A stretch of DNA of 57,127 bases from an uncultured Kiritimatiellota bacterium. Lineage in GTDB: Bacteria > Verrucomicrobiota > Kiritimatiellia > RFP12 > UBA1067. The position numbers were made by a program, and so were the translations under genes. Positions 30,000 through 46,519 of the stretch are shown in pieces. The stretch lies in the NCBI GenBank assembly GCA_934654805.1, contig CAKUGW010000003.1, positions 1 through 57,127 on the forward strand, read 5' to 3'. The first letter of the stretch is position 1, and the number at the start of each line of letters is the position of its first letter. The notes beneath the pieces were generated by a model. The model did no database searches and was not told where the DNA came from. It saw nothing but the letters and a program-made list of their open reading frames with translations.

Positions 30000-30833
30000 T
30001 CATCCCCTAAGTGATGCCGTGACGACGCGGAAGGCCGAAGCCGCGCCGAGGCGGACGGGTTCGAGCGTCGCGAGAGGCTTGCCCCTGTGCCAGAGCGTCA
30101 GCGCGGTCGGCGGCGGCACGGGCGGAAGCGCATCGTCCGCCAGCTGCGCGAACGTGAGCGCGCCCTTCGCGTCGGCAATCGCGCGCACATGGTCATCACA
30201 CGGCAAGTCCAGCAGCCAGTGCGGCGCGAAGCCCTCGTCCGGCACAAGACAGTCGCCGACGGACAGGGCGGACAGTTCCGCGTCGGCGAGCGTCCATTCG
30301 GCAAGACAGGCAAAGGCCTCGCGCGTCAGGGCGCGTATCGACGGATGCGCGACGTCGAGATTCGCCAGCGCGCCGAGCCGCTGTCCCATCTCGGGCGTCA
30401 GGTCAATCGCCAGCCGGGCCTCGCCCGCCGCGCCCGAAACGGCGAACGCCGTGTCCGGAACGGGCTTCTCGGAGAGTCCGACAATCGACAGCTGCCGCCG
30501 GGCGACCTCCTCCACGAACTGAAAGACGGCGCCGCATTCCTTCTCGACCAGGGCGAGCAGGACTTCCTTCGGAAGGGCCGACAGGCGGTCTTTCAGCAAC
30601 GTGAGGTCGGGGAAGAGCGGCGTGATCTCCAGGGCCAGCACATGCGGCTCGTCGTCGAGGCGCACGTCCAGGACAATCGGCGGGACGGACAGGCCCGCAC
30701 AGCGCGTCAAGCGCGCCGGGTGTCCGCCGAAGCGCGTCTCCAGCCGCCACGCGGGCGAGTCGAGCACCCGCGCGGCATTCGCCTTTGCCCAGCCCGGCCA
30801 TTCTTTCAGCAACTCGTTCGCATCCATTGTCAC
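30000..30833 (-). CDS. sctQ: T3SS cytoplasmic ring / sorting platform protein SctQ
   Basis: C-terminal SpoA/FliN-like segment (..LSVGDCLVPDEG..LTLWHRGKPLATLEPVRLG..). ATGA overlap with sctP. Last gene of the locus. Confidence 0.7.
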   Translation of the reverse strand: MTMDANELLKEWPGWAKANAARVLDSPAWRLETRFGGHPARLTRCAGLSVPPIVLDVRLDDEPHVLALEITPLFPDLTLLKDRLSALPKEVLLALVEKECGAVFQFVEEVARRQLSIVGLSEKPVPDTAFAVSGAAGEARLAIDLTPEMGQRLGALANLDVAHPSIRALTREAFACLAEWTLADAELSALSVGDCLVPDEGFAPHWLLDLPCDDHVRAIADAKGALTFAQLADDALPPVPPPTALTLWHRGKPLATLEPVRLGAASAFRVVTASLRG

Positions 30834-32281
30834 ACCCTCTTCTTGCGCACGTCAACCGTGACGTTGAACGTCGCGATTTTCGCCGTCAGGTGGTTCGCGA
30901 TCTGCGTGCGGCAGTTCTCCAGAAGCACGGCCATGTCCACCGTCGTCGGCTGGAACTGGACATCGAGTTGGCGTCCCGTCACGGCGATGCGCACCTCCGT
31001 TCCCTCCAGCACGTCCGGGCGCAGACGGACGACGACCTCGCCCTGCCCGCGCAACAGCCCCGGAGAGACCAGGAGCGTGTCCGCCACGGCCTGCGCGGCC
31101 TCGACCAGCACCTGCGCCGGCGGCAGGGGTTGCGCCGCCTGTGTCCGAACAATCTCGACCGGCGTGACGGCGGGCGCGGCGGGCGCCTCCGGCGCGAGAG
31201 GCGCAAGCGGCGGCGGCACAACAGGCTGTGGAACCGCCTGCGGCGCAACGTCCGCGGCAACCACCGCCTCCTCCGAGACATCCTCCTCCATCGCATGGGG
31301 GACAGACCCTGCCAGCTCGCCGGATACGGTGGGGACAGGCCCCGCAACCGTGGGGACAGAAACCGTGGGGACAGGCCCCGCTGCCGTGGGGACAGGCCCC
31401 GTTGCCGTGGGGACAGGCCCCGCCAGCGCGACGGAAACCGTGGGGACAGGCCCCGATACGGTGGGGACTGGCCCCGTTGCCGTGGGGACAGGCCCCGCCA
31501 GCGCGACGGATACGGTGGGGACAGGCCCCGCCAGCGCGACGGAAACGGCGGGGACAGGCCCCGCCAGGTTGACGGAAACCGTGGGGACAGGCCCCGACAG
31601 AGCACCAGATACCGTGGGGACAGGCCCCGCTGCCGTGGGGACAGGCCCCGACAGAGCACCAGATACCGTGGGGACAGGCCCCGCAACCGTGGGGACTGGC
31701 CCCGCCAGCGGGCGCGGAGACGGTTCACGCAGAGCCGCAGAGTCCGCAGAGGGGGCGGGTGCGGACGAGGGCAGCGGTGAGGGTATGGACACCTTCGACA
31801 CGGGCTTGCCCGTATCCAAACAGCCCTGCACACGCTGCGGCTCTGCGCAAATGTCGCAGCGCGGGCGCGCTTGGGCTTGTGGAACAATCTTCAGATCAGC
31901 CTCGGACTGCGCGCGAGCCGACAGGCTCTCTCCCAGGACCTCCGTCTCTCCGTGGCTCCGTGTGAGGCCTGCGGCAACAGGCGCAGACGGCAAAGATGAA
32001 GCCTCACACGGAGGCACAGCGGCACGGCGCGGGAAAGCCGCATCCAAAGAGGCGACAGCCTTCTGAATCTCCCTCGTCAATGCCGCGTTCTCCGAAATCG
32101 GGCCCGCCAGCGCACGCTCGAAAGCCGCCACGGCCTGGACGTCGGGACGCGACGAAAAGGCCGCGCCGTCCGCGCCGCCGACAGGCACGCCGCCGACAGG
32201 CACGCCGCCGACAGGCGCCTCCGCCGCAAGGCCTCCGCTCGACACGTCGAGATTCAGGTCAATCGAAGCTGTCGTCATCAT
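30830..32281 (-). CDS. sctP: T3SS needle-length ruler / substrate-specificity switch protein SctP with a GPVPTVS repeat array
   Basis: C-terminal T3S4/FliK-like domain (..LLVSPGLLRGQGEVVVRLRPDVLEGTEVRIAVTGRQLDVQF..). Central array of 14-15 GPVP-containing units. Lies between sctO and sctQ. Confidence 0.7.
   Translation of the reverse strand: MMTTASIDLNLDVSSGGLAAEAPVGGVPVGGVPVGGADGAAFSSRPDVQAVAAFERALAGPISENAALTREIQKAVASLDAAFPRRAAVPPCEASSLPSAPVAAGLTRSHGETEVLGESLSARAQSEADLKIVPQAQARPRCDICAEPQRVQGCLDTGKPVSKVSIPSPLPSSAPAPSADSAALREPSPRPLAGPVPTVAGPVPTVSGALSGPVPTAAGPVPTVSGALSGPVPTVSVNLAGPVPAVSVALAGPVPTVSVALAGPVPTATGPVPTVSGPVPTVSVALAGPVPTATGPVPTAAGPVPTVSVPTVAGPVPTVSGELAGSVPHAMEEDVSEEAVVAADVAPQAVPQPVVPPPLAPLAPEAPAAPAVTPVEIVRTQAAQPLPPAQVLVEAAQAVADTLLVSPGLLRGQGEVVVRLRPDVLEGTEVRIAVTGRQLDVQFQPTTVDMAVLLENCRTQIANHLTAKIATFNVTVDVRKKRV
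31297..31705. repeat. coding minisatellite: GTGGGGACAGGCCCCG core with 5- or 17-nt linkers (21- and 33-nt units)
   Basis: About 15 cores seen on the plus strand. All unit lengths are multiples of 3. The array lies inside sctP. Confidence 0.95.
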
Positions 32282-32753
32282 CTGCCGTCATCCTCCTTCC
32301 CGTGAATTCGTCCATTTCGGCATCCGCCCGCATCTCCTGCATCCGCCGATCCTCCTGTTCCCACGCGAGCCGATGCTGGTCGATCTTCGCCTTCTTCCTG
32401 CTTGCGGCGACGAACCGCACGTGCGCCGCCTCGGCCGCCCGGTCGCGCTTCGCCAGCTCGGCCTGCGCCTGCCGCTCGGCCTCCGCGAGCAGCATCGCCT
32501 CCTCGTCGATGCGCGTGACGGCCGCCCGTGCGCGATCGAGGTCGTCCCTCGAGACGACACGGCCCATGACGGCGTCGTAGATCCGGTCGCGGCGCTCGTC
32601 CTTGGTCGCGTCGAACCGGCGCCGCGTCTCGGCCTTCTCGTCGCGGACGCGCTCCGCCGCCGACCGCGCGCGCCGCGCGCCCGTGAGCTCGGTGCCGGCC
32701 CGGTCTTCGCGCATCGCGCGAATCTTCAGCATGTCGTTCAGCGCGTAGGCCAC
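32259..32753 (-). CDS. sctO: T3SS stalk protein SctO (YscO/FliJ-like coiled coil)
   Basis: Highly charged Arg/Glu/Ala coiled coil of about 160 aa. GTG 32753 is preceded by GGAAGGAGGG at 8-nt spacing. Position matches sctO. Confidence 0.6.
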   Translation of the reverse strand: MAYALNDMLKIRAMREDRAGTELTGARRARSAAERVRDEKAETRRRFDATKDERRDRIYDAVMGRVVSRDDLDRARAAVTRIDEEAMLLAEAERQAQAELAKRDRAAEAAHVRFVAASRKKAKIDQHRLAWEQEDRRMQEMRADAEMDEFTGRRMTADDDDSFD

Positions 32754-33355
32754 GGGCCGCCCCTCCTTCCCGAAACGGCTTCCGCCGCACCCTCGAACCA
32801 GACGACGCACGGGCCGTGGAACGAATACGCGAGGCTCTTCGGCCCGCGCGGCAGCAGGATGTCCAGCACGGACAGTTTGGGACAGAACCCCGTCGGATCC
32901 TTGCCGATCCACGCGACAAGCGATTCGGGCCGCACGGTCAGCGTTTCGCCTTCCGCCAGCGCGACGCGCGTCACACGCCCGCGCGTGGCCGCCACGACCC
33001 AGCCGAAGCGGAACGCCGTCACCGGCGTCGCCCGGCGAAAGCTCATCGGCACGAGCTTGAGCGACTTCGCGCCGACGCGCGACGCCGCCGGCGCGACCAG
33101 CACCTTCGACGACACAACGAACAGCGACTCGTCCGGCAGCGCCGGAATCCGCGTCAGGAACGGCGCCTCGGCGGATGCGAACCACGCCGTCCCCTCGGTC
33201 TTCGCCGTGCGTACCCACGCGCGATCCGGCACGACGAAGCCCTTGAGAGACCGAAGCGCGGTCTTGCCGAGGCTCGCCGCCGGCTGGCTGCGGCCGCAGA
33301 GCCACGTCCCCGGCGGCACCTTCGCCGCGCCGTTCTCGACCAGGGCCTCAACCAT
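32738..33355 (-). CDS. AIM24/DUF124-like beta-rich protein inserted between sctN and sctO
   Basis: 205 aa. The ATG shares one nt with the sctN stop, and its 3' end overlaps the sctO start. The C-terminal pattern ..VALAEGETLTVRPESLVAWIGKD..SFHGPCVVWFEG resembles the AIM24 family by recollection only. Confidence 0.45.
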   Translation of the reverse strand: MVEALVENGAAKVPPGTWLCGRSQPAASLGKTALRSLKGFVVPDRAWVRTAKTEGTAWFASAEAPFLTRIPALPDESLFVVSSKVLVAPAASRVGAKSLKLVPMSFRRATPVTAFRFGWVVAATRGRVTRVALAEGETLTVRPESLVAWIGKDPTGFCPKLSVLDILLPRGPKSLAYSFHGPCVVWFEGAAEAVSGRRGGPWPTR

Positions 33356-46122: not shown

Positions 46123-46155
46123 AGCATTCTCTGCTACGAACCGGCCGAAGAAAGG

Positions 46156-46468
46156 TTACACGCGCGCCGTCGCCCGGCGCGACCTGGCCTTCGCCATTTC
46201 CTCCAGCTCCTTCTTGGCCGGGCATGCCGAAGAGGGCCTCCTTCTGGGCCATCGCCGCGCGCACCGCCTTCAGCTCCTCCTCGCGCCGCTTCGAGGGCCG
46301 CTGCTGCAGCAGGCGCGCCTGCTTCGCCACGAGCGCGCGGTACGGCAGGCAGATGCGCTCGTCCGCGTCCGCCGGGGGGCGTGGCCAACACCGCCCCGCC
46401 GGGAAAGGAGGCCCGGCGGGGGCCATGCCGAGGAAACCGACCTCGGCCGTCAACCGCCCTCCTATCAA
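46156..46468 (-). pseudogene. small ORF needing a +1 frameshift near 46216-46222
   Basis: High-GC3 frame from ATG 46426 (..ERICLPYRALVAKQARLLQQRPSKRREEELKAVRAAMAQKEALFGMPG). High GC3 then moves to the +1 frame (KKELEEMAKARSRRATARV, stop 46156-46158). Confidence 0.3.
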
Positions 46469-46510
46469 GTGAACGCCACGACTGGATCTATCTTACACGA
46501 ATTCTGGCGT

Positions 46511-46519
46511 ATTGTACCA
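46511..46519 (-). promoter_or_regulatory. extended -10 box TGGTACAAT at the upstream edge of the T3SS region
   Basis: Sits in an AT-rich intergenic island, followed by ACGC and an AGGAGGG RBS at about 46455-46461. Confidence 0.5.

Follow-up and report, generated by a model that had tools for sequence, protein, structure and literature searches.

A complete but scattered injectisome is probably encoded by an uncultured gut bacterium of the Kiritimatiellia

Introduction

Injectisomes, the non-flagellar type III secretion systems (NF-T3SS), are regarded as instruments of pathogens and symbionts from the Proteobacteria and Chlamydiae. The locus described here has its best-scoring characterised relatives in the Ysc family, which comprises the Ysc-Yop system of Yersinia pCD1, Psc of Pseudomonas, Asc of Aeromonas and Vsc of Vibrio and Photobacterium. 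A 2012 survey found injectisomes in Proteobacteria, Chlamydiae and Verrucomicrobia only, and the 'scattered NF-T3SS' is an established condition, found in Hamiltonella and throughout the Chlamydiales (Abby & Rocha 2012, PMC3459982). The type III secretion (T3SS) genes of Verrucomicrobium spinosum have been ascribed to transfer from Desulfovibrio (PMC3542564). Here we analyse an NF-T3SS locus on contig CAKUGW010000003.1 of assembly GCA_934654805.1, from an uncultured Kiritimatiellota bacterium. The whole stretch of 57,127 nucleotides (nt) that was analysed is referred to as the window, and the locus occupies positions 30000–46538 of its minus strand, from a promoter candidate through to the end of sctQ.

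We conclude that the window very probably contains the main operon of an injectisome of gut Kiritimatiellia, complete but scattered, related to the Ysc and Desulfovibrionales systems and under purifying selection. Full-text literature searches on Kiritimatiellia, Lentisphaerae or Victivallales combined with T3SS or injectisome returned no description of this system, in agreement with the remark in an initial annotation of the window that T3SS are little described in such lineages; automated NCBI names such as 'SctT [Kiritimatiellae bacterium]' exist. We rate the deep clade and its host lineage as new, and the parts and their logic as canonical, not as a new mechanism.

Results

An injectisome is recognised by a secretin, SctC, encoded alongside T3SS core genes, and the window carries sctC together with sctV, sctN, sctJ and sctQ. 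Families were assigned with Pfam and NCBIfam profiles and their curated cut-offs. SctC scored 332 bits with TIGR02516 (cut-off 238), and SctV scored 878 bits with the SctV model (TIGR01399, cut-off 692) against 665 bits with the FlhA model. Pfam scans of the window genes found no flagellar families beyond the shared FliH/FliN/FHIPEP superfamilies, so that the original call of an injectisome and not a flagellum was upheld.

Four small export-gate genes, sctR, sctS, sctT and sctU, are missing from the locus, as the initial annotation had observed, and are also missing from the rest of the window: tblastn over all 57 kb with queries from Yersinia, Desulfovibrio and Kiritimatiellia gave no match (all E>0.1). 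The same search with YopB/D, LcrV/G/H, SseC-like, LcrH-like and needle-domain paralogue queries was equally empty (all E>0.1), and there were no translocon or tip genes in the window or in the 9 kb beyond its right end. A further reading, that the system itself lacks sctRSTU, was not supported by comparison with related loci (contigs designated by L numbers below) and with contigs that share sequence or an assembly with the window.

In all 22 related loci whose sequence extends past sctQ, sctR is the next gene, starting 60–100 nt on, and S, T and U follow where sequence is available; the canonical Q-R-S-T-U order is therefore ancestral for the clade. The four closest relatives (91–93% nt identity) align with the window over the cassette only, from 46160–46174 to 30019, and their flanks differ. 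In one relative (L002), sctR follows sctQ and sctT lies upstream of the cassette, behind two paralogues with a C-terminal needle-like domain; in the sister species (L086/L087), a trp operon follows sctQ. Close homologues of SctT were found in a small module, made up of two to three needle-domain paralogues, sctT and a gene of 120 amino acids (aa), that occurs in several genomic contexts. One of these contexts (L094) opens with a gene that shares 89% identity with the Cys/Met pyridoxal-phosphate (PLP) enzyme gene of the window at 55.2–56.5 kb. Through this metY-like protein of the window we reached a 65.6-kb contig (L143) that is 100.000% identical to window positions 45227–57127 over 11,901 nt and extends 9.2 kb beyond the right end of the window. 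Beyond that end it carries, on the T3SS strand, the 120-aa gene, sctT (262 aa, Bac_export_1) and three needle-domain paralogues (183, 188 and 204 aa). The sctT gene lies approximately 11 kb upstream of the T3SS operon in the same orientation, with about ten housekeeping genes between them. Exact matches of four SctT variants (P0117, P0235, P0237 and P0236) came from other samples only, not from the window's own assembly. A further contig, L090, was considered as belonging to the window species and rejected on its GC content of 60.5%.

Close homologues of SctR led to 20 contigs with a stand-alone sctR-sctS-sctU mini-operon that lacks sctT. It is flanked on one side by a UvrD-like helicase region and on the other by genes for an epimerase, a 1,700-aa TSP3-repeat protein and an RHS toxin. 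The window's SctN is encoded on ENA metagenome scaffold ERZ28615150 scaffold_801, and the same assembly, which holds the window sequence as L001, also contains the mini-operon, on scaffold_4167 (L106). Over 15.9 kb, L106 matches L105 with 100% identity; L105 comes from ERZ27287494, where L143 is also found. The GC content of L106 is 68.5%, compared with 68.4% for the window, its tetranucleotide correlation with the window is 0.977, and its SctU has an intact NPTH autocleavage motif. GCA_964322345.1 and GCA_037264895.1 carry near-identical sctRSU loci (L114 and L115). The search for sctRSTU beyond the locus, proposed with the initial annotation, located both sctT and sctR-S-U outside the window, the latter by assembly co-occurrence and composition, and we think it highly probable that the four genes were not lost from the organism and are encoded elsewhere in the same genome.

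Core genes of one system lying in at least two separate loci of the replicon define the scattered NF-T3SS, and the present system is of this kind because, on a single contig, sctT is separated from the operon by approximately 11 kb of housekeeping genes and sctRSU lies in a third context with unrelated flanks. Since more distant clade members keep Q-R-S-T-U together, the scattering is recent and independent, and what looks like loss of sctRSTU at the level of the locus follows from this recent, species-variable scattering.

Several features of these contigs were observed in their own right. A PDDEXK_3 (nuclease-like) gene is inserted in the T3SS operon of a sister species, between sctJ and the sctY-like gene (L086:4181-4777). 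In one genome, the usual flank just upstream of sctR-S-U gives way to a phage-type integrase gene and roughly a dozen small genes of phage-like character (L104:1-9615). On every contig that is long enough, sctR-S-U is followed by the epimerase, a TSP3-repeat protein of 1,670–1,696 aa and an RHS/YD-shell toxin gene (L106:7342-15902; L104, L105, L109, L110, L115). In a rumen relative, a voltage-gated-type ion channel gene (Ion_trans + TrkA_C) lies between sctS and sctT (L030:18551-19783), and no sctN match was found there.

The needle-domain families comprise two to four tandem paralogues of 170–360 aa whose C-termini weakly match PF09392; in about 15 loci they adjoin sctT or sit upstream of sctC (for example L143:5749-7506, L094:1790-3601, L031:2634-4965 and L002:1477-3195). 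Judged by sequence, they are candidates for EspA/Bsp22-type tip or filament proteins. In two more distant relatives, L047 and L031, genes for an SseC-family translocator and an LcrH-type chaperone stand in front of such paralogues. No tblastn match to the LcrV/LcrG tip or the YopB/YopD translocators was obtained in the window or in 80 related loci. Given the translocator and chaperone genes of L047 and L031, the clade overall looks like a true injection device.

The integrity of the operon bears on whether it could be a decaying remnant, that is, an injectisome truly without SctRSTU and translocon that has lost secretion. Such a reading would fit the absence of sctRSTU and translocator genes from the 57-kb window, the failure to locate translocon genes for this genome, and the sister species L086, in which no sctR follows sctQ and the PDDEXK_3 gene lies inside the cluster. 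Against it, all 21 T3SS open reading frames (ORFs) are intact, and the ratio of non-synonymous to synonymous substitution rates (dN/dS) relative to two sister species was 0.04–0.07 for SctV and SctN and 0.1–0.4 for nearly all others; g02 was the sole relaxed gene (dN/dS approximately 0.8). The intact ORFs and low dN/dS argue against decay, as do the sctT gene 11 kb upstream on a 100% identical contig, the intact sctR, sctS and sctU in the same assembly, and an arrangement that is stable across independent samples. We therefore consider a remnant unlikely, and a complete scattered system under purifying selection remains our reading of the locus. The synonymous rate dS relative to L002 was very uneven along the operon (sctF 0, yscG-like gene 0.01, sctC 0.03, sctQ 0.42), which suggests recombination between co-resident Kiritimatiellia lineages.

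To describe the host and the distribution of the system, we scanned one genome per GTDB species for SctV, which gave 489 relatives; the figures that follow refer to the best 80 of these 489. Their SctV proteins are 72–99% identical to that of the window. Nearly all are from Kiritimatiellia/Kiritimatiellae, with some labelled Lentisphaerae, Victivallales or 'Verrucomicrobia UBA', and they come from Hadza human guts, rumen, goat, sheep, yak, buffalo, roe deer and horse. The host is in all probability an anaerobe of the gut, uncultured and GC-rich, from the class Kiritimatiellia in the Planctomycetes-Verrucomicrobia-Chlamydiae (PVC) group; a GC-rich anaerobe, possibly of PVC type, had been suggested from the window alone, and relatives that are gut metagenome-assembled genomes of Kiritimatiellia agree with it. 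Three contigs deposited as Faecalibacterium, Gemmiger and Lachnospiraceae (L005, L006 and L008) carry the same T3SS, with SctV 85–95% identical and, for L005 and L006, 80–85% nt identity to the window; they are probably mis-binned. We also think it very likely that the system is old and widespread in gut Kiritimatiellia and Lentisphaerae, and that the ancestral sctQ-R-S-T-U arrangement was broken by rearrangements in this genus.

An alternative origin, recent horizontal acquisition from a proteobacterium (a Ysc-type pathogen or Desulfovibrio) or contamination by one, would account for closest characterised relatives that are proteobacterial or Desulfovibrionales systems, and has a precedent in the earlier inference of horizontal transfer from Desulfovibrio for V. 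spinosum (PMC3542564). The composition of the segment speaks against it, being the same as that of its housekeeping flanks (GC 68.8% in the T3SS part and 68.6/67.7% in the flanks; tetranucleotide r=0.99), and nothing in the sequence suggests recent import. SctV is only 52% identical to that of the nearest proteobacterial system, the cluster occurs in at least 80 PVC species-level genomes that form one clade with 100% bootstrap support, and the locus is embedded among argD/argB/pheS/lepA and nusB/ribD. Recent acquisition or contamination is thus extremely improbable. An ancient transfer into the PVC lineage is possible and is compatible with the old, scattered Kiritimatiellia system that we favour.

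The placement of this system among injectisome families was examined with SctV and SctN. Against PDB sequences, full-length SctV scored 762 bits with YscV (7alw), 456 with SsaV and 412 with FlhA. Its C-domain scored 391 bits with YscV, 283 with CdsV, 172 with EscV and 161 with InvA, and was 51% identical to YscV and 41% to CdsV. Among PLSDB plasmids, SctV was 52% identical to sequences of Photobacterium, Yersinia and Aeromonas, 49.5% to Nitratidesulfovibrio vulgaris, 48% to Bradyrhizobium pNK6b, and 39–43% to Hrp2, Rhizobiales and Mxi-Spa types. SctN was 72% identical to that of N. vulgaris, the highest value of all references, and 65.5% identical to YscN. We built neighbour-joining trees of SctV with Kimura distances and 200–300 bootstraps, with chlamydial and enteropathogenic Escherichia coli sequences in the C-domain tree only. 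The Kiritimatiellia/Lentisphaerae sequences formed a clade with 100% support in both the full-length and the C-domain tree. This clade fell inside a group of Ysc, Desulfovibrio and pNK6b sequences (91% full-length, 59% C-domain) and was sister to N. vulgaris in 81% of full-length and 15% of C-domain replicates. It forms a separate branch beside, not inside, Yersinia and Photobacterium. The Ysc accessory set (sycN, yscB, yscX and yscY with yopN/tyeA) is present at the level of remote homology, several members being sub-threshold. Because of the SctV trees and the SycN/YscB/SctX/SctY set, we place the system, from its sequences, as its own deep clade in the Ysc/Desulfovibrionales-related branch. 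The proposed phylogenetic check found a lineage of its own, outside Ysc proper, and set it near Ysc and Desulfovibrio.

A resemblance in gene order to the chlamydial cds clusters had been suggested in the initial annotation, and a chlamydia-type injectisome inherited vertically within the PVC superphylum would suit the PVC host, the scattering over several loci as in Chlamydiales (PMC3459982) and the CdsV C-domain being the second-best PDB family, at 283 bits. The data favoured YscV over CdsV for the same domain in both score (391 against 283 bits) and identity (51 against 41%), a sister grouping of Kiritimatiellia with chlamydial CdsV had 5% bootstrap support in the C-domain tree, and the SycN-, YscB-, SctX- and SctY-like genes match Ysc/Desulfovibrio sets. 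Moreover, distant members of the clade are unscattered and keep Q-R-S-T-U. The resemblance was therefore not sustained, the system does not group with the Chlamydiales family, and vertical inheritance of a chlamydial machine is very unlikely.

We then identified the individual components of the Kiritimatiellia operon, all encoded on the minus strand. For the small genes, profiles (hidden Markov models, HMMs) were built from the orthologues of 57–73 related loci and searched against the protein sets of Yersinia pCD1 and the N. vulgaris plasmid. Above curated cut-offs were SctC, SctW, SctV, SctJ, SctL, SctN, SctO (Pfam), SycN (Pfam) and the FHA-like cytoplasmic domain of SctD (Pfam); specific yet sub-threshold were SctF, SctI, SctX, SctY and the T3S4-like C-terminus of SctP. 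With Sct families matched in this way, the component list given earlier (SctC, W, V, D, F, I, J, L, N, O, P and Q) proved almost exactly right.

The first conserved cassette gene in the closest relatives is g02 (45796–46122), which encodes a 108-aa Pro/Ala-rich protein with no match in Pfam or NCBIfam. It is followed by a CesT/YscB-like class I chaperone (133 aa, 45398–45799; Pfam CesT 22.1 bits), whose clade HMM matched a Desulfovibrio CesT-family gene beside sctC (E=7e-4) and YscB (E=0.05). SctC (629 aa, 43497–45386) has a signal peptide and matches Pfam Secretin, Secretin_N and T3S_SPI-1_N0. Its C-terminal tail of approximately 70 aa, encoded at about 43497–43710, is unusually Arg/Glu-rich and lies where Ysc secretins bind their pilotin through an S domain; neither the window nor any related locus yielded a homologue of the pilotin YscW. 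The gatekeeper SctW (396 aa, 42305–43495) is a YopN-TyeA fusion that scored 115.7 bits with TIGR02568 (cut-off 89.5) and matched Pfam HrpJ and TyeA, the latter domain at 25.7 against a cut-off of 25.9 bits. The next two genes encode a SycN-like chaperone (128 aa, 41922–42308; Pfam Type_III_SycN 32 bits, cut-off 27; TIGR02503 62 bits, below cut-off), whose clade HMM matched Yersinia SycN at E=2.7e-13, and a SctX (YscX)-like protein (127 aa, 41542–41925) with full-length matches to TIGR02502 (26.3 bits, cut-off 30) and Pfam (22.7, cut-off 25) and an HMM match to the Desulfovibrio gene at the yscX position (E=4.6e-5).

SctV, the subunit of the export-gate nonamer (701 aa, 39416–41521), is followed by the inner-membrane ring protein SctD with its FHA-like cytoplasmic domain (437 aa, 38096–39409; Pfam Yop-YscD_cpl 40 bits, cut-off 33; TIGR02500 82.7, cut-off 86). 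A 69-aa protein (37767–37976) was called a YscE-like needle co-chaperone from its position and its clade HMM, which matched the Desulfovibrio gene between sctD and sctF, the yscE position, at E=7.7e-6; it had no match in Pfam or NCBIfam. The needle subunit SctF (106 aa, 37369–37689; Pfam T3SS_needle_F 27.1 bits, cut-off 29.4) ends in ...SIASNFR, the NFR ending having been reported from the outset, has an N-terminus approximately 25 aa longer than that of YscF, and matched YscF through its clade HMM (E=1.5e-7). A YscG-like needle chaperone with TPR repeats (122 aa, 36994–37362; TIGR02508 21 bits, below cut-off) was identified by its clade HMM, which matched the Desulfovibrio TPR gene after sctF, the yscG position, at E=2e-10 and YscG at E=0.012. 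The inner rod protein SctI (126 aa, 36617–36997) scored 28 bits with Pfam T3SS_basalb_I, 26.8 with HrpB2 and 25 with NF038054 (below cut-off), and its HMM matched YscI at E=2e-6. SctJ (194 aa, 36017–36601; TIGR02544 198 bits, cut-off 162) is the lipoprotein of the inner-membrane ring, as described before, with the lipobox LTGC and without a C-terminal transmembrane segment.

A SctY (YscY)-like TPR chaperone (115 aa, 35647–35994; NF052415 48.7 bits, cut-off 70) follows sctJ and is displaced from its usual site before sctV; its clade HMM matched YscY (E=4.7e-7) and the Desulfovibrio TPR gene before sctV (E=1.5e-9). The adjacent gene, between sctJ/Y and sctL, encodes a probable short SctK (122 aa, 35297–35665), assigned by position; it had no direct match in Pfam or NCBIfam, and its orthologue in L030 had a weak match to Pfam YscK (E=3e-4). 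SctL, the stator (205 aa, 34692–35309; NF005392 159.3 bits, cut-off 159; TIGR02499 98, cut-off 78.7), and the ATPase SctN (442 aa, 33355–34683; NF005391 773 bits, cut-off 657) follow. The initial list placed sctO right after sctN. The gene in that position is g19 (32738–33355), which encodes a conserved 205-aa beta-rich protein with homologues in 61 loci and no Pfam or NCBIfam family match; in most relatives it lies between sctC and sctW, and a single-sequence AlphaFold model was unusable (predicted local distance difference test, pLDDT, 35). The stalk gene sctO is present as the next one (164 aa, 32259–32753; Pfam YscO 41.7 bits, cut-off 28.8).

The ruler SctP (483 aa, 30830–32281) has a C-terminal T3S4-like domain (weak Pfam HpaP/Flg_hook matches at residues 411–476) and, in agreement with its earlier description as repeat-containing, a central array of 14 GPVPT-type repeats (heptads) at window positions 31329–31710. 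This spacer is hypervariable: a strain of the same species (97.4% nt identity) has instead approximately five repeats of about 50 aa (PLRAS...TRSHGETEVLGE), and among close relatives SctP varies from 447 to 535 aa while both of its terminal domains are conserved (compare L084:8391-9998 and L086:8493-9998). The last gene encodes a highly divergent SctQ (275 aa, 30000–30827), a sorting-platform protein identified by fold, family members and synteny. The window sequence had no direct match in Pfam or NCBIfam, and its sequence profile had none in the PDB, so that only the fold search succeeded. Among its 114 homologues, 3 of 29 sampled matched PF01052 FliMN_C. In Foldseek, an AlphaFold2 model built on the homologue alignment (pLDDT 95.7) was closest to FliM from Salmonella C-ring structures and to FliM(SPOA)::FliN. 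We assigned it as SctQ because of this FliM/FliN-like fold and because sctR is always the next gene in relatives.

The window has a GC content of approximately 68–69%, and its raw ORF lists are crowded with shadow ORFs; gene models were based on third-position GC by frame, stop-to-stop ORF tiling and start-codon context. They gave 21 well-supported co-directional T3SS genes from 46122 down to 30000. About 22 chained genes had been counted before, and the tight, co-directional arrangement stood while the 22nd ORF (g01, 46134–46426) was doubtful. Nearly all junctions abut or overlap (-23 to +22 nt), with ATGA 4-nt overlaps at sctW/sycN, sycN/sctX and yscG-like/sctI; only the yscE-like gene before sctF is set apart, with gaps of 119 and 77 nt on its two sides. 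A sigma-70-like promoter candidate, TTGAAA-16-TGgTACAAT (46511–46538, minus strand), with 10 of 12 matches where 0.1 such sites were expected in shuffled sequence, sits in the sole AT-rich stretch upstream of the operon, and this one promoter probably drives the 21 translationally coupled genes. The region 46134–46426 was treated as 5' leader, g01 showing no conservation in relatives except an out-of-frame overlap with g02; that g01 might be a remnant of the 120-aa gene of the sctT module was rejected, as similarity was nil.

At the other end, the terminator described directly after sctQ corresponds to an 18-bp GC-rich hairpin (29937-29976) between the convergent genes sctQ and argD, with a T-run on the argD side. 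A misassembly at this junction was rejected, the same junction being present in independent assemblies (including L084 and L085), in nine contigs altogether. Rfam and transfer RNA (tRNA) scans found a single feature, tRNA-Pro (TGG), and neither T3SS boundary showed an integration hallmark. The tRNA-Pro gene lies at 27709–27785, between pheS and argB and 2.2 kb from the end of sctQ, and no integrase or repeat tying it to the T3SS rearrangement was found at either boundary. The remainder of the window consists of housekeeping genes: pflB, the mraZ-ftsI division genes, dxs, lepA, pheS, tRNA-Pro, argB, argD, a radical-SAM/BATS enzyme, ribD, nusB, a parE/gyrB-like gene and the Cys/Met PLP enzyme. 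The plus-strand cluster at 3.3–17.7 kb was considered as a second T3SS block and rejected; it is mraZ-mraW-ftsL-ftsI, dxs, cinA and other housekeeping genes. At 22817–24836, a 534-aa protein without Pfam match precedes a GspG-type pseudopilin (N_methyl + T2SSG), and the pair is also kept in the same-species contig L084.

Discussion

By analogy with Ysc, SPI-1 and related systems, the parts would form a single active machine for delivering effectors into a eukaryotic cell, whether of the host epithelium or a gut protist. Transcription would start at the promoter near 46.5 kb and translation would be coupled. Rings would form from the outer-membrane secretin SctC and the inner-membrane proteins SctD and SctJ, and the export gate would consist of SctV with SctR/S/T/U, which are needed for a working machine and would be supplied by the other two loci. 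SctN, SctL, SctO, SctQ and, probably, SctK would energise the process and sort substrates. SctF and SctI would be exported first, the E/G-like chaperones holding SctF monomeric. The SctP ruler would act as the switch on SctU, and later substrates would be gated by SctW together with SycN and the YscB-like chaperone; SctX and SctY would assist SctV. The needle-domain paralogues beside sctT are candidates for the tip or filament.

Several points weigh against the favoured reading. The machine is described here from its genes, and neither an SseC-like translocator nor an LcrH-like chaperone could be located for this genome, both being seen only in the more distant relatives L047 and L031. The sctRSU mini-operon is tied to the window genome by assembly co-occurrence and composition, not by physical continuity; ERZ27287494 also contains the sister species (L087), and it and ERZ28615150 may derive from one sample. 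SctK, the YscE- and YscG-like proteins, SctX and SctY have a sub-threshold or positional basis. The trees are neighbour-joining trees of one protein, whose references did not extend to Myxococcales, Hrp1, Verrucomicrobium or full-length chlamydial sequences, and the SctV C-domain does not decide between Ysc and Desulfovibrio as sister group. We advance only tentatively, as somewhat less than an even chance, the broader proposal that the abundant and presumably non-pathogenic Kiritimatiellia and Lentisphaerae of human and ruminant guts carry a working Ysc/Desulfovibrio-related injectisome with expanded needle-domain paralogues, used on gut eukaryotic cells (epithelium, or protists and ciliates), and that in one genus it works although its core is freshly scattered over three loci.

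At least 80 species-level genomes of gut Kiritimatiellia and Lentisphaerae, some of them from Hadza people and from the rumen, share a well-conserved system. This extends the taxonomic reach of injectisomes and raises the question of which cells these polysaccharide-degrading anaerobes inject, those of the host or those of gut protists. With sister species that differ in the sites of sctT and sctRSU, the genus shows the break-up of an operon under continued selection. A single-locus scan with clustering of the TXSScan type would score the organism as having an incomplete T3SS. If a scattered injectisome does work in this gut genus, scattering needs neither an intracellular lifestyle nor constitutive expression. 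These observations are relevant to gut microbial ecology and to the fragmentation of secretion operons.

Compared with the Ysc family, the window has YopN/TyeA, SycN and YscB-, YscX-, YscY-, YscE- and YscG-like genes in common, as well as the modules W-SycN-X-V, D-E-F-G-I-J-K-L and N-O-P-Q, and its ruler bears repeats, like YscP. Unlike in Ysc, YopN is fused to TyeA, sctC and sctD are separated by an inserted W-SycN-X-V module, sctY has moved to between sctJ and sctK, and there is an extra conserved gene, g19. LcrV/LcrG, YopB/D, the pilotin YscW and a VirF/ExsA regulator were not detected in the window, SctQ and SctK are very divergent, and sctRSTU is detached and split, with T apart from R-S-U.

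The Desulfovibrionales system on the N. vulgaris megaplasmid also has a fused SctW, and the E-, G- and Y-like genes of the window match the Desulfovibrio versions best. N. vulgaris, too, separates sctR from sctS-T-U (R after Q, and S-T-U after V). In contrast to the window system, Desulfovibrio has its cluster in a single contiguous locus on a plasmid, translocators (SctB, LcrH-like) included, and its SctQ has 485 aa compared with 275 aa. V. spinosum is, by its published description (PMC3542564), likewise a non-chlamydial PVC bacterium with an injectisome.

As in Chlamydiales, whose cds genes lie in at least three to four loci, and in Hamiltonella defensa, the core genes of the Kiritimatiellia system are dispersed among housekeeping genes. 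Unlike the chlamydial system, it belongs by sequence to a different family, and its host, an anaerobe, presumably lives free in the gut and is not obligately intracellular. Its scattering is recent, confined to one genus-level group and variable between sister species, whereas distant members of the same clade are unscattered.

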